A stretch of DNA of 24,669 nt from a virus (IMGVR_UViG_3300033143_001674:1-24669); one strand, 5' to 3'; counted from the first letter of the stretch, positions 1 through 16,062 are shown. Program-made: numbers and translations. The notes: generated by a model not told the origin, from the letters alone.

Positions 1-110
1 CGCCTCCATCTCGTACATGAAGTGTGCGAACTCGTGTAGGAATGTTGACAGATCCGCCGACTCCATCAAACGAATGACGCTGTTAGCGGGGTCGTAGTAC
101 CCCCGTGCTT
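1..110 (-). other. Zincin-like metallopeptidase (MPTase) domain start within the polyvalent protein
   Basis: Translation ARGYYDPANSVIRLMESADLSTFLHEFAHFMYEME with an intact HExxH at 22-36; the rest of the domain lies outside the window. Confidence 0.85.
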
Positions 111-3100
111 CCCCAGTATCAGGTTGCTTTTGTTTGAAACTTTTGGACGTACCAAATGTGTGGCCCGCGTCGGCCATCGACTTCCCATTCGAGAATACAT
201 CTATCGTCCGAATCTCAGCGGCGTTAAGCATGTTAGCCACGTTAGTCTCCGCGCCTACCATGTCGCCGGTATTGAGGATGGCCGCAGTCGCGTTGGTCTG
301 CTCCACCGCGCTAAGTACGTGGGCAAGCCTGCCACTGCGAAGCTCCGCACCATCTGCTGCGAAGTCGAACGGCAAGAAGCCGACGGGCCGGTGCCGATTG
401 TCTAGTAAAACAATACCGTGTTCGCCACCGGATATGTCCTCTACCACGGACGTTGCGGTTGCCGGGCTTGTGATCACCGGTGTGTCTTCTGGCGGGACGG
501 ACTCCAGCGTACGCTCCACCAGCTCTACTCTGTTCGTAACAGCAGGAACCTCCATCAGATCCGTCTTGCCGGCACCCTCGTGGGTGAAGTAGTCAGGGGT
601 GACCGCCATGATGCCGTGGTACTCGACCCCCGAGCCATCTAGTAAGTTTCTCAACTCACTTGACACGCCAAGGTCTGCGCCGCTCAGCTCAGTATTCCCC
701 GACGGGTGGTTGTGTGATAACCAGACGTTTGCAGCGCCCGGCACATTCACGGCCCACCCTGCAATCACCCCAAAATCAACCATCGCGGCATCTTTCTTGC
801 CCATAGTGTGATTCAGTATCTCAAGAGGTCTGCCACTTTCATCGGTGGCAATTACCCAAAGTTTCTCTTGCGCCGACTTGGTTAGCGTCGCAGTAGCCCT
901 CGCAACCTTGTCAGGACTATCAAGGGACTCAAACCCGGTGTCAATCTGTTTAACAACCTCACGACCCACGACCGACGCTTGGCGTTGTACGGTGGTGGCG
1001 GGCTGTAAGTCCCCTTGTGGGCTGATGTAATCCCCCTCGTCGTCAAGTGTGCTCCCACCTAAGTTCTCCTGTGCGTATACGTCGGGGTCGTTAGTGCTAA
1101 ACCCCCCTCGATTCTCCACTGATTTGATGTTGGTTTTACCGCTGTCAAAGATGTGAACGTGGGCTGTCCCGTCAACAATATTCATGGTAGAGAAGCGCTG
1201 CTCCGCGTTCCGCAGGATTATCGAGTCAAAACCCATCTCCTCGATAATTTCAGCAATCAATTGCGAGCCCATAAGCGCCCCTGTCTCGGGGTCTTCAGCG
1301 TAGCGTATTTCTTCATTACCACGGATTAACGCTTCAATGGTCTCAGGGGTGGCACTTTCACCGAGGTCATACACTTCACCGGCTAACTCTGACGCTGCAA
1401 CTCCATTGCGATCCGCAACCGTTTGGATCGCTTCGATCAACGGGTGCTCTTGTTCTTCCTGAATTTCCCATCGTACTTCATCAATCTGGCCTTCGTATTC
1501 TTCAAGGTTTTCACTCACCTCTTCGACTGTGGTGTCGTTATCCTCAGCAACACGGTCAATGGCTAACGACTGAACTTCGGCATCATCAACAAACTCAATC
1601 CACCCAGCGTCCTCCCCAATGACAAATGGGTTGTCCACTCGCACATACAGCCCCATCGTCTGATCTTGTCCACCCGATAACTCAGCCCTGGCCACCGCTT
1701 GAGCAATGTCACTAGCGTCTTCGAGGTATTGATCTACACCAGGCACATACTGCTCAGCGGCGGCGTCTAAACTTTCATTATCAATAACGTCTTGAATCTC
1801 ATCCTCAAGCTGTTCAGCGCGTCGGTCGATTCGACTAGTCAGGTCAGGGCCTTCTCCCGCGTAGTTATCATGAGCATCGGATTCTGAGCTGGTGAAATAG
1901 TTTATGGCGCCGAACTGTCCTTCGAGACTCCCCCTCTCTGCGTCAAACACGCTAAACTCGTGGGTAGTGCCGTGAAACACTTTAACAACGGTAGGGGTGT
2001 CCGCTTTGAACTCGTGGTCATTGATGTCATGCGACTCAACCACCTCTGCGTTGCCTGACCAGCTCCGAAACTCTTCAGTATCAGTTTGATCTTCAACCGG
2101 TGTTTGCGTGAACCGCTGATGGGGTTCACGATGGAATGATTCACTGATTTCGAAGTCTCTGTTTTTGCCTTTGTTCTCAACGAAACCAAATTGTTTATAG
2201 AAAGATTTCAGACGCGGAACTGACCCGCCAAAATCTTTACTTGGCGATAACGCCACTGTCTTGCCGTTCTGGTCAGCCCAGTCGATGACGCGCTGCATCA
2301 CCTGTGAACCCGTGCCTTGCCCGCGCTGTTCCTCAGGTATGATTATTTTACTCAGAGTTACGTTGTCGCCCTCGCCCATGATCGATAACTTCAGGCCGTC
2401 GAACTCCTCGGTCAATGAAGACTGGATTTCACGTGCCGTCAACTGGTGCGCGTCCTGCGTCAACACCTGCTCGCCTTCGAGTCGAGCATTTTCCCCTGTC
2501 TGTGGGCCTTCTACGGACAGCCCCGCGTCGGCATACACTTGTTGCACCGTTTTGCCACTACGCTTGGCCCGTGCAGTCGCCCACGCAGGCACCACCTGTG
2601 CCATGATTGACGCGTTAGCATCACTCACCGCGCCCGTGTCAACTAGCTGGTCACGCACCTTGGTGTAGATCTCCTGTGCTTCAACGTACTCAGATACATT
2701 CTCTTGGGCTTCGGCCATCAAGGTCTCAACATACGCTTCCGTCTCGACCCTATGCTGTTCTTGGTGGAATGGCGAAACGGCCTCCTCACTCATCGTCATG
2801 TGTTCGCGAAGCTCTGTGTGGGCATCAGTGCCCACGACATCCCCCATGAACTCATCCACCGGTATGGCGACATCTGCGCCGGTTGCGCGGGACTCTCCCA
2901 CCGCGACGCTAAGTGCTTTCAGCGCCGGATCTGCTTCGATCTCTTCTGGAGTTTTGCCCTGCAAATACAACGAAGTCTGCACACCGTCGATAAACACGTG
3001 GGTGTTGTTGTCCCCATCCGCTTCGCGCACAAACTGCTTGAACGACTCAACGTCATGTGCCCTCAGTTTCGACTTAGCCGCGTCCGCGCTCAGCTTGTCC

Positions 3101-4266
3101 AGATTGCGCTGTTCAGCCTCACCCTGCGTCTCTTTCACTTGCTCTGTCTGCGTGAGTTTGTTGATTGCCTTGTTCACTGTGGTTGCCGCCGTTATCTGCG
3201 TACCGCCCGCCACCACAGTGGCGATCGCGGTGACCGCTTGGCGACGTAGCTGAATGTTAATAATTTCTTCGGCAGATTGCGCGTTTTCGAGTTCTTTATC
3301 TAAGCCAAACATGTACGAGTTGACCGTCTGCAACGCAGTAGCGAGTTGTTCGGTGCCCATCTCCTGCACTACGAACTTCAACGCGTCTTTTTTCAAACCG
3401 GTACTTTTACCGGTAAGCACCCGCTCAATGGTGCCTGTAGGCAATAGTTCAGTGCCGACCTCAATGGCCGCGTCAATTCCGGCAAACCACCGCGCTTCCT
3501 CGGGGGTCAACCCTTCTGCGCGGCCTTCTGCGAACGAACCTGTGAACGTCTGCACACCTATCGCGGTGAGCAGTGGGTTTGGGTTCCGTGCGAGTACAGT
3601 CAGTACAAGCCCCGGCACCATGTTTGCGATGGACTCGACCCCTGCGCGGACACCTTCCTGTACGACGTTAAGGTCTTCGGGGGTCAACGTCTGGCGTTCT
3701 TTTTGCAGCTCTTGGATCTCACCGATTAGCCTTTCAGACGCTTCGCCTGTTGCTTTGGTGAATTGTTGCTCCAGTTCTTCGTCGGAAACATTGGCATTGG
3801 CCTTGCCCAACTGCTGCATCTTGAACTCTAGCCCCAGAGGGGACACGCTCATCGGTAGCCCTGATTCTAGCCGCAGTAACTCAAGCCCTTTGGCCTGCAT
3901 CTCGAACCCTGTAGCGATGGAGCCGCCCACCCCCTCGAAAGTCCGCTCGATACCCGCGAGCAGCCCACTGGTGACATCCTCCTGCGCGATGACCGAGTTG
4001 TTCATGTCAGTGGCGAGGAACTGTGAAGTTTTAGGGGAACGCTGCGCCATTCCTTCGAGGTCAATCTGGTCGAGCTTAAGCCTCTGCTCCACCCGTTCGG
4101 GGCCAGACTGCACCGCGAACGCGGGAACGCCTGACTGCTTGCTCAGGTCTAGGGTCTTCGCGTGTTGTGCGGGGTCAATCTTCACCGCCTCACTCATGTT
4201 GGCGCTTAGCGCGTCGTCGTTTACCCCAAAACTACCAAGGTCGATTTTTTCAAGATCTAATGCCAT
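1..4266 (-). CDS. Large polyvalent internal virion (ejection) protein, partial (>=1422 aa, 3' end outside window): LPD22-like + GNAT + ART-PolyVal + JAB/RadC + degenerate JAB + HExxH metallopeptidase
   Basis: Not in the ORF track. The ATG at 4266 overlaps the upstream TAA (TAATG), and I found no stop in this frame from 4266 to 1. Starts MALDLEKIDLGSFGVNDDALSANMSEAVKIDPAQHAK. Motifs: QRGQGTG (2308-2328), VFHGT (1966-1980), HNHPSG (697-714), HEFAH (22-36). It sits after the other internal virion genes, in the slot of the largest ejection protein. Confidence 0.93.
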   Translation of the reverse strand, partial: MALDLEKIDLGSFGVNDDALSANMSEAVKIDPAQHAKTLDLSKQSGVPAFAVQSGPERVEQRLKLDQIDLEGMAQRSPKTSQFLATDMNNSVIAQEDVTSGLLAGIERTFEGVGGSIATGFEMQAKGLELLRLESGLPMSVSPLGLEFKMQQLGKANANVSDEELEQQFTKATGEASERLIGEIQELQKERQTLTPEDLNVVQEGVRAGVESIANMVPGLVLTVLARNPNPLLTAIGVQTFTGSFAEGRAEGLTPEEARWFAGIDAAIEVGTELLPTGTIERVLTGKSTGLKKDALKFVVQEMGTEQLATALQTVNSYMFGLDKELENAQSAEEIINIQLRRQAVTAIATVVAGGTQITAATTVNKAINKLTQTEQVKETQGEAEQRNLDKLSADAAKSKLRAHDVESFKQFVREADGDNNTHVFIDGVQTSLYLQGKTPEEIEADPALKALSVAVGESRATGADVAIPVDEFMGDVVGTDAHTELREHMTMSEEAVSPFHQEQHRVETEAYVETLMAEAQENVSEYVEAQEIYTKVRDQLVDTGAVSDANASIMAQVVPAWATARAKRSGKTVQQVYADAGLSVEGPQTGENARLEGEQVLTQDAHQLTAREIQSSLTEEFDGLKLSIMGEGDNVTLSKIIIPEEQRGQGTGSQVMQRVIDWADQNGKTVALSPSKDFGGSVPRLKSFYKQFGFVENKGKNRDFEISESFHREPHQRFTQTPVEDQTDTEEFRSWSGNAEVVESHDINDHEFKADTPTVVKVFHGTTHEFSVFDAERGSLEGQFGAINYFTSSESDAHDNYAGEGPDLTSRIDRRAEQLEDEIQDVIDNESLDAAAEQYVPGVDQYLEDASDIAQAVARAELSGGQDQTMGLYVRVDNPFVIGEDAGWIEFVDDAEVQSLAIDRVAEDNDTTVEEVSENLEEYEGQIDEVRWEIQEEQEHPLIEAIQTVADRNGVAASELAGEVYDLGESATPETIEALIRGNEEIRYAEDPETGALMGSQLIAEIIEEMGFDSIILRNAEQRFSTMNIVDGTAHVHIFDSGKTNIKSVENRGGFSTNDPDVYAQENLGGSTLDDEGDYISPQGDLQPATTVQRQASVVGREVVKQIDTGFESLDSPDKVARATATLTKSAQEKLWVIATDESGRPLEILNHTMGKKDAAMVDFGVIAGWAVNVPGAANVWLSHNHPSGNTELSGADLGVSSELRNLLDGSGVEYHGIMAVTPDYFTHEGAGKTDLMEVPAVTNRVELVERTLESVPPEDTPVITSPATATSVVEDISGGEHGIVLLDNRHRPVGFLPFDFAADGAELRSGRLAHVLSAVEQTNATAAILNTGDMVGAETNVANMLNAAEIRTIDVFSNGKSMADAGHTFGTSKSFKQKQPDTGEARGYYDPANSVIRLMESADLSTFLHEFAHFMYEMEA
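600..930 (-). other. JAB/RadC-like domain within the polyvalent protein
   Basis: LDSPDKVA...AQEKLWVIATD...VWLSHNHPSGNTELSGAD: the E...HxHPSG-x4-S-x2-D signature of RadC-type JAB domains is complete. Confidence 0.88.
1070..2090 (-). other. ART-PolyVal-like ADP-ribosyltransferase domain with acidic insertions
   Basis: Ordered motifs TEEFRSWSGNAEVV, VFHGTTHEFSVFD, FGAINYFTSSESDAHDNY, MGLYVRVDNPF, GFDSII, IFDSGKTNIKSVENRGGFSTNDPDV match the pattern I recall for this family. Confidence 0.82.
2115..2420 (-). other. GNAT acetyltransferase domain within the polyvalent protein
   Basis: VTLSKIIIPEEQRGQGTGSQVMQRVIDWADQNGKTVAL (acetyl-CoA-binding motif A) and RLKSFYKQFGF (motif B). Confidence 0.88.
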
Positions 4267-5897
4267 TATTCCGCCGCCTGTCGTTGAGCTTTCGCAAGAT
4301 TGTCCGCCGTCACCGGAACACCGTTACTGCGCAGGAACTTACTCAAGGCCCTCAAGTCCGCTGGTGGTATGTCGGTGACGCTCAGTGTTGCATCGGGTAC
4401 TAGAAAGTCAACACCAAATGCACTGCGCCCAATGGTAACCTCTCGCGTCAGATCCGACAACACGTCAGTGAACTCTTCCGAGGTCAATGTCCCCCCTTTT
4501 TCACTCTCGCGGAACTTCACTTCGCCGTCTAGCAGGTCATAGAATGCGTTAGCTTGCTCGCGCTTCTCGTCACTCCACTTGGTCTTCTTGCCCAACACCT
4601 GCTCTACCGCCGAGGTGGTCTGCGAGCTGCGCGTACGACCTACTTGGTGGTCGATCCTGTCCGACGAGGAGCCAGTGCCCCCCGCGCTCTTGACGGCACT
4701 GATAAGCTTACTGCGTTCGCCCGGCGCGAGTTCGTGGAAATGCTCTGTCGGGTTGATTTTGGCTAACTGACCCTTGGGTAACGTCATCAACTCCGAGTAA
4801 GTGTTCCAGTCGGTGATGGTGGCCTTGCCTGCCGATATACTGCCTCGCTGCTTAGCGGTTAGCCGCTGCCAACCTTCGGGGTCTTCCGCTTGGTATGTTT
4901 CCGCTGAACCACCCTCGATGACGTGAGACTCCGCCCGTTCAAACGAGGCCGCCCGCGCCTCACTCTCACCCTGCTTCTTGAGGTTAAACTGGCGCATCGA
5001 CTCGGACATAGTTTTCTTACGAAGCTCAGGGTCTTTGATCTTGTTGACCTCACTACGAACTTCCTCACGACTGTCGTATCTGTCAACCAACTGATTGCCT
5101 GCGACAATGGCCTGTCGGGAGTCCTCCTGTAGTTTCTCCGCTTTGGCTTTGGCTACGATGCTTTTTTCAAGTTTAATCTTGTCGGGGCCTTCGAGTTGGC
5201 CGCCGTGTTTCTCAAACAGCGTGGCCCCTTCGCTGGCACTGCTGCCCACCGCCGCTGTAATCGCGTTTTTGATGAACGATGAGTCGTATGTTTGCAGCCG
5301 CTCGTTCGTTGCCTCAGCACCAATTCCCTCTAGCTCCGCTGAGTCAATGACCGCTTGTCGACCTAGCGCATTCTGTACAGCTAGGCGGTCAGGCTGATTC
5401 CAGTACAACGACGCGTTCTCGACTGTGTTCTCCACTTGTGACCTGATGGTGGCGACTTCCCACGCTTGCAACCCCTTGGATGAGTGCCTTGCGATGTCGG
5501 CCTGCGCCCTTGTGATGTGCGTGCCTGCCGACTTGTCAAACATGGACTTTGAGTTTTGGTTCAGGGCTTCACCATATTGCTTCTTCAGCTTATCCAGCGC
5601 CCCCGTCGTCGCCTCTGCACTATCAAAGGCATTCTTGCCCTGAGTATTGAAGTACCCGCTTTCTGGGTTAAAGAATAACTCGTTCTTGTCCCGCTCAAAC
5701 ATCACTAACGCTTCTTCAGCGGAAGTAGTGTCTATGCGCTGCTTAACCTGCACCCCTGCTTGTACCAGCGACTCGGCCCCCTGCGCGGCGCGTATGTTCG
5801 ACTGGAACACGGCACTGCCTGCCGACGCGTCTGCGCGGGGCTGGCGTGTTACCTCGGTGAGAACCTGTTGGCCCCCGTACTGCGCGACTTTTGGCAC
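4266..5897 (-). CDS. Internal virion (ejection) protein, 543 aa
   Basis: Helical Ala/Gln/Glu-rich protein starting MPKV, with a GYFNTQGKNA segment typical of epsilon15/BPP-1-like core proteins; lies between the small and the giant ejection genes. Confidence 0.75.
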   Translation of the reverse strand: MPKVAQYGGQQVLTEVTRQPRADASAGSAVFQSNIRAAQGAESLVQAGVQVKQRIDTTSAEEALVMFERDKNELFFNPESGYFNTQGKNAFDSAEATTGALDKLKKQYGEALNQNSKSMFDKSAGTHITRAQADIARHSSKGLQAWEVATIRSQVENTVENASLYWNQPDRLAVQNALGRQAVIDSAELEGIGAEATNERLQTYDSSFIKNAITAAVGSSASEGATLFEKHGGQLEGPDKIKLEKSIVAKAKAEKLQEDSRQAIVAGNQLVDRYDSREEVRSEVNKIKDPELRKKTMSESMRQFNLKKQGESEARAASFERAESHVIEGGSAETYQAEDPEGWQRLTAKQRGSISAGKATITDWNTYSELMTLPKGQLAKINPTEHFHELAPGERSKLISAVKSAGGTGSSSDRIDHQVGRTRSSQTTSAVEQVLGKKTKWSDEKREQANAFYDLLDGEVKFRESEKGGTLTSEEFTDVLSDLTREVTIGRSAFGVDFLVPDATLSVTDIPPADLRALSKFLRSNGVPVTADNLAKAQRQAAE

Positions 5898-6406
5898 TAG
5901 GTCACCCCTTGAGTGGCGGCGCTACTTGGCGTGAACCACTTGTCCGCAACCCCCGAACCCAGCGCTTTGCCCGCGCCAGCCAGTAGAGTGCCTACTGCGG
6001 CACTATTGCCTGCGGACTCCTCGAACTCACCCTGTTGCGTTGTCAACGCCGCGCCGGTATCCAACGCGCCTGCGCGACCTTCGAAGTTACTGCGGATGCG
6101 AAGCGCGTCTGCTTCGCCGAGTGTTTGGGTGTCTTCCTGTAGTTGGAGTGCGGAACCTGACGTGAGTTCGACCCCTGACGCGCCCAGTTGCGCCCGTTGC
6201 TTTGATAGCAGTTCCGCAGTTTTGCGGCGTTGCAGGTTCTCACGCTCTACCCCGACGTTGCGTGTCTGCTCGGCCTCGTTCTCTGCGACTCGTGCGTTGT
6301 AGTCGGCAACGCCTTTCCGGAATTTACCCTGCTGGCGCTGTTGATTCGCTTGGTAGCCTGCCGATACTACGGTGGTTATCACCGCAATTGTTGCTGGATC
6401 GCACAT
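5897..6406 (-). CDS. Small internal virion protein (T7 gp14-like), 169 aa
   Basis: MCDP start, hydrophobic N-terminus, QRAQLGASGVELTSGSAL motif, Gly/Ala-rich hydrophobic C-terminus; RBS GAGGGG; syntenic position. Confidence 0.8.
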   Translation of the reverse strand: MCDPATIAVITTVVSAGYQANQQRQQGKFRKGVADYNARVAENEAEQTRNVGVERENLQRRKTAELLSKQRAQLGASGVELTSGSALQLQEDTQTLGEADALRIRSNFEGRAGALDTGAALTTQQGEFEESAGNSAAVGTLLAGAGKALGSGVADKWFTPSSAATQGVT

Positions 6407-6866
6407 CTTGATACCCCTCTAAGTGAAATAGGTGGAACAGCTCACCCAGCGGGCCATGGGTCACAGGGCCTTCTACTGTGAACCCTAGCCATTTCAGCCA
6501 CCGGATGCTGCTAGTGTTCTTATTATGCACCATGTTACACAGGCGTGGGCATATAGTCAGCATCTCTGCGATAACAGGGGGCGTTTGTTTTAAGAGTTCT
6601 CTCTTGTGGTCGCGCACGGTATCCGCCCCTAGCATCCACAAGGTGCCTGTGCCTGTCAGTATGTCCCTCTTGACTAACCCGAACATCACGAGGGGTTCAC
6701 CGTCCCAGCACGCTACTGTCGCGAAGTCTGACACCCCCCACCCGTCCACCAACGACTCTAGGGGCGTGCGCATGCCGGATGCCCATACCTCCGCTGCGTC
6801 GGCGGGGCGCATGGCTGCCGCAAGGCGTTCTACCATCCACCTCTCCGGCTTCACAAACTCGATCAT
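6324..6866 (-). CDS. GNAT-fold virion assembly protein (T7 gp13/DUF2833-like), 180 aa
   Basis: MRPADAAEVWA, LWMLG and LCNMVHNKNTSSIRWLKWLGFT motifs; directly follows the nozzle gene as in T7-like and epsilon15-like phages. Confidence 0.85.
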   Translation of the reverse strand: MIEFVKPERWMVERLAAAMRPADAAEVWASGMRTPLESLVDGWGVSDFATVACWDGEPLVMFGLVKRDILTGTGTLWMLGADTVRDHKRELLKQTPPVIAEMLTICPRLCNMVHNKNTSSIRWLKWLGFTVEGPVTHGPLGELFHLFHLEGYQDVRSSNNCGDNHRSIGRLPSESTAPAG

Positions 6867-11998: not shown

Positions 11999-12685
11999 TT
12001 AGTTAGTATTTTTATCATTCGGATACAGGAGGGATACACGGTCTTGTGCTTTGGATGTCGGGGCAACTGCTCCCCCTGGTACGTCCTCGGCGGTCAACCT
12101 TCCTACCTTCACCATAAACCGGATAACTTCGGGATGGTTGCCCACACCGTGTTCTTCCAGCAATTGTTTTAACTCTGGCGTACCAAACTTATCTATGGCA
12201 GATCGCGCAACACCGACACTTTCTTCAAACTTGTCGCCGCCAAACTCCTTGTCGTTCCTAGATTGGTCTTGCCAGTCATTCATCATTTGGTTAAAAGCAT
12301 CGACCTGGCCCTGCGAACCCGCCTGGACTTGTTTTGCTTGGAAGTCAACTAGCTTCTGCGCTTGTTCCTGACTCAACCCCAACTCTTTGAAAATTGGAGA
12401 TGCTTCAGCTAACAGTGCGGAATCTACGTCAACCCCCTCGGGCATAACAAAGTCGGCATAGGTGCCGGGGGCGGTCGGACTACCTTCGCCCTCCTGTTCG
12501 GCGGCAGGGATGCCACCGGTATCGTCCGCAACTGCTGCTGCGTCAAAACTCGTCGACACTGCTGGGTTACCAGTGTCCTCTATAATGTCGGTCTCAGTCT
12601 GTACGCCTGTGGTGCCTGCTGCGTCGCCATCGGCACCCGCTTGCTCACGGTACACTCTTCCCATCCAATTGTTTTTAGTTTTCAT
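11999..12685 (-). CDS. Capsid scaffolding/assembly protein, 228 aa
   Basis: Acidic low-complexity N-terminus, KELGLSQEQAQKLVD, GNHPEVIRFMVKVG, C-terminal LLYP; directly upstream of the MCP. Confidence 0.82.
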   Translation of the reverse strand: MKTKNNWMGRVYREQAGADGDAAGTTGVQTETDIIEDTGNPAVSTSFDAAAVADDTGGIPAAEQEGEGSPTAPGTYADFVMPEGVDVDSALLAEASPIFKELGLSQEQAQKLVDFQAKQVQAGSQGQVDAFNQMMNDWQDQSRNDKEFGGDKFEESVGVARSAIDKFGTPELKQLLEEHGVGNHPEVIRFMVKVGRLTAEDVPGGAVAPTSKAQDRVSLLYPNDKNTN

Positions 12686-12941: not shown

Positions 12942-14614
12942 CAGCCAATCCCAGCTCGCTGCATCACAGCGCCTAGCGCGTTGTTCTCGCTCACTTCCGT
13001 CTCTGATGCAGTCTTAGCCATATCAGCCCCTTGTTGCGCCATCGCCATCGCACGCGCTTGTGTGGCCTGCTGCGCCTCCGCTTGTGCCATCGCTTCGACC
13101 TCACTATCGCTTCGAACAATCGACGGGTCAACGCCTAGTGACTCCGCGTACTCATCAATCGCGCGGCCGGCATCGACCTTGTGACGCGCCTCCGGCCACA
13201 CCTGCGCGACTTGACTTGTGAACCCTACTAAGCGGTCAACTGCGCCGGTAGCGACTAGCCGCTGCGCTTGTGCAAGCACTGACACGTATTCCACGTTCAG
13301 TTCCCTGTCTTGCAGTTCAGGGGGCGGTGGCGGTAACACACCATTCTGCTGCAAAATGCTGAACGTTCGGTCGATCAGCGGGTCAAGCAACTCGGTGTGT
13401 AGTCGTTCAAGTACAGGGCCTAGCATGAGTAATTTCTCTTCGTGCTTCTCCGCAACCTCGCGGGCTGTTATCTGGCGACGGTCTGTCTGCGCCAGCATTA
13501 AAAATAGATCTTCGTAAAAAGCCCGTTGCACCCGCTGTTCGACGGTGTGTATTTCCTCTCGAATAACATTAACATCAGGGCGGTAGTTGCCGTAGATGCT
13601 CGATAGGCCCACGCTGGTCTGGTCGTGCCACACAATGTCATTAGGCCCTACAACGCCCCCATTGATCTTGTTCCGAAGGGCTGACGGGCCTTGTAACGGC
13701 GGGTTCACCAGCTTATCAATTGCTTGATATTTACGACGTTCAGCCAGTTGCAGCGCCTTAGTGTCCCCTAGCGCGGTGATGCCGGGGCAATCTGTCGCGT
13801 AAACGTCCTCGGCGGTTACGTCCCACCGGGGTGCTACGATAGGGAACCCATCAAACCCTGATTGCCGCAGGAACTTCTCGTCCCCATCACGCGCACCCTT
13901 GTTCGCTTCGTAATAAACACTTCGCCACGGCTTCTGGCTTGCAAGGGGGCTATTGCCATCCCTCTCGTCGTTCGGCTCAACTGCGTGGACGATCTTCACC
14001 CACGCCTCACTGTTCCCCTTCTCCCACTGCTCCTTGACGGATTGACTGACACTATCGATGCCAAACTGCTTGACGCACTGGCCCACGCTCACTTCATACT
14101 CCCGGTAGAACGTATCGCTGACATTCCGGCTGTTCAGGCCAATCATGTAGCTGCCGACGGTGTAGGGTTTGCACCAAATAACATTATCGAAATCTTGGTA
14201 TATCCCCATCGCGGCGGTGCCAAATGTCCCCAGTTCTGAGTAAAGTTGGTGCAATGCGTTGTACGCATTCGACTGCGAGAACACCTTGTACATCAACTGT
14301 TGGACTTGATGCAGCCAATGTTTCACCGCTGAACTGTCGTCCAGGTCACTGTCACCCGATGATAGCCGAAACCAGGGTCTCGCTGGCGATGTGATGCCTG
14401 ACATCATCCCTGACGCGAGCGTCCTATTCGCGAGACGCGACGTGTTGTTGATTTGTTTGGTGTTGCGCTTGTAGCCCTTGTTACGATCTGATGTCAGAAA
14501 TCTGCCTCTATGTGCGAGGTGATAGTCTGATAGCTCACGGTACAGTGGTATGAACGACGATCGCTCAGATCGCAGCGCTTCTAATCTCTTATTGTAGCTT
14601 ATGATAGTAGTCAT
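12941..14614 (-). CDS. Portal protein (head-tail connector), 557 aa
   Basis: LASGMMSGITSPARPWF, PRWDV, ALGDTKALQ, AFYEDLF and ITAREVAEKHEEKLLMLGPVLERL motifs of T7/BPP-1-type portals. Confidence 0.95.
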   Translation of the reverse strand: MTTIISYNKRLEALRSERSSFIPLYRELSDYHLAHRGRFLTSDRNKGYKRNTKQINNTSRLANRTLASGMMSGITSPARPWFRLSSGDSDLDDSSAVKHWLHQVQQLMYKVFSQSNAYNALHQLYSELGTFGTAAMGIYQDFDNVIWCKPYTVGSYMIGLNSRNVSDTFYREYEVSVGQCVKQFGIDSVSQSVKEQWEKGNSEAWVKIVHAVEPNDERDGNSPLASQKPWRSVYYEANKGARDGDEKFLRQSGFDGFPIVAPRWDVTAEDVYATDCPGITALGDTKALQLAERRKYQAIDKLVNPPLQGPSALRNKINGGVVGPNDIVWHDQTSVGLSSIYGNYRPDVNVIREEIHTVEQRVQRAFYEDLFLMLAQTDRRQITAREVAEKHEEKLLMLGPVLERLHTELLDPLIDRTFSILQQNGVLPPPPPELQDRELNVEYVSVLAQAQRLVATGAVDRLVGFTSQVAQVWPEARHKVDAGRAIDEYAESLGVDPSIVRSDSEVEAMAQAEAQQATQARAMAMAQQGADMAKTASETEVSENNALGAVMQRAGIG

Positions 14615-16062
14615 TAGTGAAACTCCACGAGGTCGATAGATGCAGTAAATGTCCCGTTTACAGGGCCGCCGGGGTCTATTTCTACCACGAGATCCTCCCC
14701 TGGGCGTATGCGTATGGATTGGTCTTTGACGTTCTCCAGCAATGTTGCCCCTGCTTTTAGGACTCTGGCTCGCCCTCGCTTGCCGCCGGTGACTGTCCCG
14801 CCCTTGGCGATCTCTAGGACGCTGTTGTCTGTGTCAACATCGACGAACGCCCCGCCGCCTGCAACCGTGCCCCCCACAGATCCGTACACTACAACATCCT
14901 TATTGCCGTTGTTAACTAAGTCAATGACCGCCATGCCTGCCAGTGTGTGGTTGTTCTTGCCTCGGTATATGCTCTTACTTCTGATGACAAACATCACGGT
15001 TCTGGCTGCGGACACTAACTCCTGCTCGAGGTTAGTGATGCTGAACCACCGGTCGCTGACTGAGGCCTCCCCGCCGCCCGTCACAACCCCAGCGCGCCAA
15101 CTCCCTGTCAGTATGCGAAGATCCGCGCCCACCCCTGTAGTCCTCTCGATTTTCACAGCGACAGGCAGTGACGGGTTGTCAAGGTGGGTGTCCACTGCCT
15201 CATTGATGAACTTAAACTTATGACACGGCAGCACGTGGCCCTCCTCTGACGTAATCTCTAGCGTAAGGTTCTTGATTCCGTGCCACACATATTTCAGTTC
15301 AGGAACTTGACCCGTTTGGAGATCCATGTCGTATGAGGACTCGCCGCTGCCGTCCATCACGTCGATGTTCCAGTCTACTTGTGCAACAAACGAGACTGCT
15401 CCCCCTTTTATGAACCACAGCCCTGAGTCTAGCCCCTGATACCCGAGGGCGAACCCGTCGAGGTCGTTAAGAAACCCTGCGTACTGGTTCACGTTAACTT
15501 CTGGCTCCGCGAACACTACGGACGGCATACAATACGATTCTCTGCCCGATCTATACCTGACCGCATCGAGCGATTCCAGCATAGCGCTGCCCACGCCCGT
15601 CCCTGTCGACACGGCGACCATCGAGCCTACTTGCCCGACCGCTCCCGTGCCCGTGACATCGTTCACGTCTCTAACATCGAAACTGCTTACGCCATATTGG
15701 AAATTTATACTAACGTCGTCCCGCCGCTCACCCACGAGCATTTCACCCGCTTGACTGACCGCCACCCGCCTGCCGGAAGAGTCGCTCATCACAGCCTGCT
15801 CGAACGGGTACTCTGTGAGGGTGAGTGCCGACCTGTCAGTCATGGCTAACACCCACACAGATTCCCTCGTGAAGGGTATAGGGAGCATCGTTTCCCGCCC
15901 CGCGCCCCCTAGTTCGTGGAACGCCACGTTCGTCCTGGTGGGCTTCGCGTTACTAATCGCGATGCGCACCGTGTCGCGGTGAGACTGCAACAGCATCGCA
16001 GTACCGCCGTCACTCACCCGTGTATACTGAGTCGTGTCAAGGTTTGCGACGCTAGTTGTCAC
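14614..16062 (-). CDS. Uncharacterised beta-rich protein, 482 aa (possible lectin-like virion accessory protein)
   Basis: Fills the gap exactly (GTG just after the upstream stop; TAATG overlap with the portal). Gly/Val/Ser-rich with RYRSG, QVDWNIDVMDGSGES, YVWHG and NPSLPV motifs. Confidence 0.75.
   Translation of the reverse strand: MTTSVANLDTTQYTRVSDGGTAMLLQSHRDTVRIAISNAKPTRTNVAFHELGGAGRETMLPIPFTRESVWVLAMTDRSALTLTEYPFEQAVMSDSSGRRVAVSQAGEMLVGERRDDVSINFQYGVSSFDVRDVNDVTGTGAVGQVGSMVAVSTGTGVGSAMLESLDAVRYRSGRESYCMPSVVFAEPEVNVNQYAGFLNDLDGFALGYQGLDSGLWFIKGGAVSFVAQVDWNIDVMDGSGESSYDMDLQTGQVPELKYVWHGIKNLTLEITSEEGHVLPCHKFKFINEAVDTHLDNPSLPVAVKIERTTGVGADLRILTGSWRAGVVTGGGEASVSDRWFSITNLEQELVSAARTVMFVIRSKSIYRGKNNHTLAGMAVIDLVNNGNKDVVVYGSVGGTVAGGGAFVDVDTDNSVLEIAKGGTVTGGKRGRARVLKAGATLLENVKDQSIRIRPGEDLVVEIDPGGPVNGTFTASIDLVEFH

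Follow-up and report, generated by a model that had tools for sequence, protein, structure and literature searches.

[FLY]-x-Q tags at the module joints of a Bbp10-type phage ejection protein: candidate cleavage sites for its in-cis HExxH peptidase

A polyvalent ejection protein and its motifs

Do the short motifs that recur at the edges of successive enzyme domains in one phage virion protein mark the places where these enzymes are cut free? This question is raised by a minus-strand ORF in the window (that is, the whole stretch of DNA analysed, a podophage fragment of 24.7 kb). Four motifs, LTQ, FTQ, YAQ and FKQ, had been picked out by the initial annotation at the boundaries of the cargo, and all four were found there, in this one ORF (Table 1). 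Portal, capsid, tail, gp14-like and terminase genes located upstream place the ORF in a phage virion context. It is the fourth and largest gene of an internal virion protein (IVP) block and is homologous to Bbp10 of Bordetella phage BPP-1, which is given as IVP-D in Table 2 of Hardies 2016 (PMC4819975). Its N-terminal 599 aa matched 16 cultured phage records, including six Vibrio phages (66–71%) and Bbp10 (25%); synteny and Bbp10 homology suggest that the protein is packaged and injected. With GNAT, ART-PolyVal, JAB and LPD22 all recognized by Pfam, at least two unrelated domains share one chain, as in polyvalent proteins. Pfam sees the first JAB only (595–921), and the second is devoid of the SHNHPSG motif.

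Table 1. Features of the ejection protein ORF and adjoining IVP genes in the window
Feature	Position	Strand	Basis or remark
Large internal virion (ejection) protein, BPP-1 Bbp10/IVP-D type polyvalent protein	1..4266	-	1422 aa visible; ORF open at 3′ end, passes window edge
LPD22 domain, aa 22–114	3925..4203	-	Pfam PF18834, E 4e-11
YLQ, aa 434–436, conserved scaffold copy away from cargo joints	2959..2967	-	Relatives alignment
Conserved helix + strand (QVYADAG-LSVEGP) directly before cargo array	2491..2589	-	Alignment
Tag A, LTQ, aa 602–604, scaffold's own tag, start of cargo array	2455..2463	-	34/35 close relatives
GNAT module, aa 605–721, about 13 kDa, with FTQ (aa 719–721; 2104–2112) at end	2104..2454	-	Pfam GNAT, aa 632–697
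ART-PolyVal module, aa 722–1066, about 38 kDa, with YAQ (aa 1064–1066; 1069–1077) at end	1069..2103	-	Pfam from aa 761
Two-JAB module, aa 1067–1379, about 33 kDa, with FKQ (aa 1377–1379; 130–138) at end	130..1068	-	Pfam RadC-like JAB, aa 1116–1224
Start of zincin-like metallopeptidase, HEFAH aa 1411–1415 (22–36)	1..114	-	Third-ligand helix outside window
IVP-C-like ejection protein, 543 aa	4266..5897	-	Homologues
IVP-B, T7 gp14 family	5897..6406	-	PF24072, E 2.7e-9
IVP-A-like internal virion protein	6324..6866	-	phrog_308, E 4.5e-35

One further locus (L069) is identical (100%) to the last 114 nt of the window and extends with one tagged insert and HEQFARGFE; it is likely the continuation of the window protein and, as such, would provide both the third-ligand helix and a further tagged insert. 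Among the IVP-C homologues in the matches listed (16 of 75), tagged cassettes were absent as judged by eye. Elsewhere in the window, a 482-aa gene (14614–16062) flanked by the terminase and portal genes has matches to PHROGs of virion structural type; Vibrio phage 1.185.O has a shorter gene (879 nt) in its place and, at L277:28101–28318, four annotated CRISPR spacers that overlap a coding gene.

By number, the motif is unexceptional: the window protein harbours 11 copies of [FLY]xQ, compared with 9.9 ± 2.8 in 2000 shuffles, and aa 591–1422 harbour five, compared with 4.6, the fifth being a YKQ (2191–2199) inside the GNAT. The count being at chance, the case rests on position, which was examined in relatives.

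Position of the tag among relatives

Homology breakpoints were located without use of the motif, which was then scored within 15 aa of each (background 10.8%). The motif was carried by 32/32 scaffold-to-cargo breakpoints, 30/30 cargo-to-peptidase breakpoints and 28/47 interior breakpoints, the last counted if seen with at least two partners and some of them being divergence points within a module; among the best-supported interior joints, 15/19 were tagged and 4/19 were not. Both interior joints of the window protein (719 and 1068) were recovered in this motif-blind way. Raw BLAST ends had been tried as joint markers and were noisy (26% versus 11%) until within-module breakpoints were filtered.

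Across 33 viral loci and five cultured phages, the stretch between scaffold and peptidase ranges from 8 to about 1300 aa and the order of modules varies. The scaffold ends in [FLY]xQ in 34/35 close relatives, and the last cargo does so in 33/33. The tag also precedes the peptidase in 55/55 additional viral loci whose upstream sequence is present (M-x-Q in one of them) and in 72/78 prophages, compared with a background of 21.6%. Pooled and dereplicated, it precedes the HExxH peptidase in 151/159 members (background 20.8%), whichever cargo comes last, while six control motifs ([FLY]x followed by E, N, K, S, R or D) in the same window reached only 16–35/159. Chance placement of a common short motif, of which the initial annotation had itself warned, is in keeping with the shuffled counts of the window protein; for position it is refuted by these controls and by the motif-blind breakpoints, and we give it essentially no probability.

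Unrelated cargos end in the tag, namely GNAT, ART, JAB, PBECR5, GGDEF and an LPD23-peptidase, and a nucleotidyltransferase is a further cargo type between scaffold and peptidase. Modules of the window's own types are followed by it in 8/10 relatives (GNAT), 11/11 (ART) and 3/3 (two-JAB block). The latter is tag-free inside. A second cargo slot lies within the peptidase, in the stretch that separates the HExxH helix from the third-ligand helix; long inserts there are tagged at both ends in 18/18 cases, a count that omits four rows in which the pattern had matched a cargo peptidase. Vibrio phage MZH0603 has zero cargo and one tag, as do at least six other members; cargo-free members with a single tag include L037, L079, L245, L252, L260, L262 and L269. 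In Bbp10 itself, FDQ and FYQ flank the cargo. The tag is retained at 25–30% scaffold identity and recurs in hosts from many bacterial groups. Together, the breakpoints and module ends of relatives strongly support the view that the motif marks the joints at which cargo is swapped.

Some loci show unusual arrangements. In L022 (aa 845–857) two tags lie a few residues apart (LAQ-APAAP-LEQ), and in L018 (aa 705–840) a PBECR5 module is internally shortened with its tags retained, both being signs of module loss by deletion. A third insertion slot lies about 270 aa past the peptidase start (L069:1201–1749; also L003, L012, L024 and L035) and is occupied by one related helical insert, which is untagged and has no Pfam match.

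The tag before the peptidase is missing in 8/159 members with an intact HExxH, including the cargo-bearing L166, L214 and L243. Rhodospirillales-type prophage members (L214, L220, L229 and L258) have a divergent peptidase (DYDLSTALHELGH) and miss the last tag, several reading LEER. In Xylella phage Usme (L281:2153–9504), whose record splits the homologous gene into two annotated parts, the peptidase loop holds an ART-like insert that is short and untagged; phage CP2 is without it.

Conversely, the motif is conserved at places inside the scaffold that would be expected to remain uncut. YLQ, which the initial annotation had missed, is a deeply conserved seventh-type copy that reads [FLY]xQ in 157/215 aligned relatives and persists in L189, a member with a dead peptidase; it may be structural, a docking element or an extra site. 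Other scaffold copies include an FKQ (112/208) and three sites in the C-terminal part (21–23/24 each). As the motif is conserved inside scaffold regions, access must matter, and [FLY]xQ alone is insufficient to define a site.

Tag register, codons and peptidase lineage

The tie between tag and peptidase was seen in two sets of ART ends. In the first (the best 120 of 304 longer ART-PolyVal proteins, 101 with a C-terminal anchor), x[FLY]xQ closes 14/14 ARTs in eight proteins with a Bbp10-type peptidase versus 2/178 in the other 93; in the second, retrieved with a non-Q query, [FLY]xQ closes 5/5 versus 0/71, giving 19/19 versus 2/249 for both sets. Elsewhere the same position reads IRYS, IRFS, ITKA, ITES, ILED and others. 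Agreement of ART tags is 0.63–0.64 within one protein versus 0.11–0.21 between proteins. In the second set, FGHEMTH peptidases pair with IRFS (28/28, many of them near relatives) and WHExxHPV peptidases with IQx (6/6), which makes IRFS and IQx candidate cleavage codes of other lineages. Both pairs are seen in giant polyvalent proteins of 3000–5800 aa (L294–L356, L285, L319, L320, L332 and L335).

For 22 of the 51 Q-tagged ARTs, the nearest relative carries a different tag, several at 54–66% identity. On a FastTree phylogeny of 170 ARTs, 51 of them Q-tagged, 31 label changes were counted (43.9 ± 2.3 in shuffles); Q-tagged ARTs are clustered, yet far from one clade. This scatter, together with differently tagged relatives at such identities, indicates that the tag is rewritten on transfer, and the tag appears to belong to the receiving chain rather than to the cargo. 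However, distant Q-tagged proteins share the C-terminal scaffold as well; since peptidase, scaffold and tag are co-inherited, the lineage tie cannot single out the peptidase as the reader of the tag.

The place of the predicted cut can be read from stand-alone ARTs. Among 110 relatives of near ART length, 67 with the anchor, the shortest and commonest C-terminus lies 9 residues past the anchor, just before the Gln position (10/67, counted without a filter for contig-end truncation), and two annotated phage genes (JA13 and pT24) stop at the same residue. In several small ARTs this register reads I-x-E followed by S or A. For comparison, T4 gp21 recognizes L/I-X-E and cleaves after Glu, as described in PMC9026906. 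Small stand-alone ARTs whose C-termini resemble T4 gp21 sites, with I/V/F-x-E and a short tail (P0170, P0182, P0196, P0204, P0210 and P0224), may be head-packaged internal proteins. As stand-alone ARTs mostly stop right before the Gln position, a cut at the tag would probably fall N-terminal to Gln and restore the natural enzyme end. Two general points would fit a cut before Gln: zincins often select on the residue that follows the scissile bond, and in bacteria F, L and Y act as N-degrons whereas Gln does not. In two cultured phages whose hosts are harmless, the predicted cut points are aa 587 and 791 of Caulobacter phage JessA and aa 669 and 970 of gp16 of Pseudomonas phage AF.

At the DNA level, the Gln codon before the peptidase is biased to CAA (30/33; in a further count 34/48, with 17–23 expected), a bias that is not explained by a purely protein-level signal. 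An origin of Gln as a fossil stop codon (TAA to CAA) after gene fusion, with the bulky residue as a structural domain end and neither having a present function, would account for this excess and for the coincidence of Gln with the exact stop position of stand-alone ARTs. No CAA excess is present, however, at tag A (16 CAA, 18 CAG), interior joints (7 and 8) or ART ends (25 and 29); where other lineages have a Ser tag, the Ser is encoded by TCA/TCG in 6/28, as in the background; fusions in other lineages yield other residues; and cargo-free members, as well as proteins of low scaffold identity, retain the tag. A fossil stop may explain the origin of the tag, not its upkeep, and as a full account it has a very small probability.

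The same codon bias at one joint, and a two-copy 18-nt similarity (D5) near two of the window's tags, could also be read as signs of DNA recombination sites at the joints (integron-like or based on microhomology), with the amino-acid motif as a by-product. Against this, no repeat family covering the four window tags and no integron-like repeated site at each joint was found, and the codons at all three tag positions vary both synonymously and non-synonymously, which renders this explanation extremely improbable.

The peptidase and the predicted release of cargo

The HExxH and the downstream third-ligand Glu (in HEQFARGFE) are invariant in 38/38 members. The HExxH type was the only peptidase candidate in the chain; a chymotrypsin-fold cysteine protease was not found. 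The strands were not built in either AlphaFold model of the peptidase (pLDDT 70 and 84), and no clear fold match was obtained (best Z 5.8); by profile, the strand-HExxH part matched cargo peptidases with 94% probability, and matches to M3 peptidases were weak (E 0.4–0.9). As reported for the CLCA_X family, the peptidase region of Bbp10 (residues 700–1000) served as a seed, and CLCA_X is sister to the self-cleaving CLCA proteases (Lenart 2013, PMC3650047). In the account of phi24B, the peptidase is assigned to peptidoglycan. The portions consulted of a review of ejection proteins (PMC8954989) make no mention of peptidases, and those of the virion accounts of BPP-1 (PMC3863775) and phiXacm4-11 (bioRxiv 10.64898/2026.02.16.706137) give no size for the IVP-D-type protein.

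In alignments of cargo-free members, the single tag follows the conserved helix-strand and is itself followed by the RG-x-F strand that precedes HExxH, a place that corresponds to the strand 1–2 loop of cargo peptidases; hence the first array, too, may loop out of the peptidase fold. The helix-strand preceding the cargo is possibly the first helix and strand of that fold: the hhalign match is weak (E 0.009, probability 4%), and Pfam DUF6782 spans the helix-strand in the cargo-free L037 (E 0.005).

Natural controls are provided by two independent peptidase-defective cases only. In L189, RESAH replaces HExxH (the first His being lost), no cargo is recognizable and the array site is tagless; L176/L177 are without the peptidase, recognizable cargo or an array-site tag. 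When further members with a dead peptidase were sought, the only matches were the contigs of the queries themselves. L291 was rejected as a peptidase-dead member with tags, an HExxxH variant being present, and L215 was a pattern miss.

The reading that we favour, and hold to be somewhat more probable than all others together, is that the tags are recognition and cleavage sites for the in-cis HExxH zincin of the Bbp10-type ejection protein. In this model, the scaffold strand and almost all cargo modules end in an [FLY]-x-Q tag; the zinc peptidase would cut just before Gln at the tags, acting within its own chain or across the few copies present per virion, and would free the GNAT, ART and JAB enzymes, probably once they are inside the host cell. 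Modules could be gained, lost or reordered usefully only with a resident tag at their end, a constraint that would account for the acquisition of the tag by incoming domains. The observed basis comprises the position of the tag, modular swapping, intact zinc ligands and the tie of tag to peptidase lineage. That the motifs are processing sites of the HExxH domain, as originally proposed, is supported indirectly, also by the shared register and by the tagless peptidase-defective members; the cut probably lies before, not after, Gln. From this basis we infer that cutting occurs, that the zincin performs it, which bond is broken and when. Cargo occupies two places, the array before the HExxH strands and the loop between the HExxH and third-ligand helices, and its excision would therefore leave a nicked peptidase. 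That an inner-loop cut would nick the enzyme itself counts against cleavage, as does the N4 virion RNAP, which bears such a domain and is packaged unprocessed according to Iyer 2017 (PMC5512222). The motif copies within the scaffold and the untagged joints likewise call for caution.

The main alternative is a tag that stays uncut and serves for docking or pausing. Each module would use it to bind the scaffold, the exit channel or the zincin fold while the protein is packed, unfolded or ejected, and the cargo would work in its tethered state. The tag does follow the scaffold as well as the peptidase, and conserved copies lie within the scaffold, one of them in the peptidase-dead L189. The packaging of the N4 RNAP as a whole agrees with docking, and so does Hardies 2016 (PMC4819975), in the part consulted, where passengers are treated as integrated domains and where no processing of the protease-less IVP-D of phiRIO-1 was found. 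On the other hand, the catalytic Glu is invariant, the position of the tag coincides with the natural stop of stand-alone ARTs and with the bond that T4 gp21 cuts in I-x-E tails, three residues with free flanks make a thin binding epitope, and the array-site tag is lost in L189 and L176. Docking without cleavage is accordingly judged unlikely.

Cleavage of the tags by another protease, either a host enzyme or a phage protein, is quite improbable. A phage candidate is the 228-aa gene between portal and capsid (window 11999–12685), which matches phrog_458, labelled protease (E 2.5e-51), and other lineages appear to use prohead-protease-type tails. Yet this gene has neither an NCBIfam match nor a solved relative, its sequence resembles that of an acidic helical scaffolding protein, and its protease label is probably inherited; the capsid proteins of BPP-1 are uncleaved by the account in PMC3863775; and Vibrio phage 1.185.O is, by annotation, without any protease gene. 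Occurrence of the same tag across hosts of many bacterial groups makes a single host enzyme unlikely.

Cleavage by the resident zincin could be one instance of a general code, in which each lineage's peptidase has its own tag of three to four residues, effectors are re-tagged on arrival and, in the present lineage, cargo arrays are looped out of the peptidase fold and excised on injection. [FLY]xQ here, IRFS with FGHEMTH, IQx with WHExxHPV and I-x-E with prohead proteases would be its entries; this extension is tentative, and we consider it rather less probable than not.

Relation to known systems

The hypothesis that phage polyvalent proteins process themselves dates from 2017; mapped sites for it were not found in the literature searched, and the tag supplies exact predicted cut points in cultured phages. 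Cleavage at the tags, if true, would explain how a varying set of anti-host enzymes is delivered by podophages through the ejection tube, would allow cargo domains of unknown kind to be parsed from sequence by rule and the released proteins to be predicted, and would offer a natural cassette slot for protein delivery into bacteria. Should the tags stay uncut, their rewriting in lineage-specific form whenever a domain moves still represents a new constraint on domain shuffling.

Polyvalent proteins were defined by Iyer 2017 (PMC5512222), where autoproteolytic release by the HExxH domain was proposed and where, as here, GNAT, ART-PolyVal, JAB, PBECR, GGDEF and LPD domains share one virion protein with HExxH. 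In the main text of that paper, as far as consulted, a junction motif, a cleavage site, a tag-peptidase pairing and cargo inside the peptidase were not found. Likewise, searches of the open full-text literature gave no description of the tag, its register or its pairing with a peptidase. Both the class of protein and the proposal of autoprocessing are thus already known; for the tag, the register and the pairing, no earlier account was found.

BPP-1 Bbp10 and the IVP-D proteins of the epsilon15 group share with the window the gene order IVP-A, B, C, D, and Bbp10 has 25% identity to the window protein over the N-terminal 599 aa; unlike here, they are described with integrated passengers, and a processing signal is unmentioned in the part of PMC4819975 consulted. 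T4 gp21 sites likewise provide a three-residue signal on packaged, injected proteins, and the I-x-E tails of small ARTs share the register of the Gln tag (PMC9026906); however, gp21 is a separate serine protease that acts in head maturation and cuts after Glu, whereas the enzyme here would be an internal metallopeptidase, with Gln probably following the cut. The CLCA and CLCA_X zincins are related through the Bbp10 seed, and CLCAs self-cleave at a conserved site, yet with one cut per chain, compared with several tags here; for CLCA_X, a site is not given in the part of PMC3650047 consulted.

As in self-processing polyproteins, a recurring motif stands at the domain joints of the window protein. 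RNA-virus polyproteins are cut after Gln by 3C or 3C-like cysteine proteases of chymotrypsin fold, and their gene order is fixed. They resemble the present protein in having one chain with several enzymes, Gln-containing joints and a protease in cis, and differ from it in that the protease here is a zinc peptidase, the cargo is swappable and the chain is packaged in the virion.
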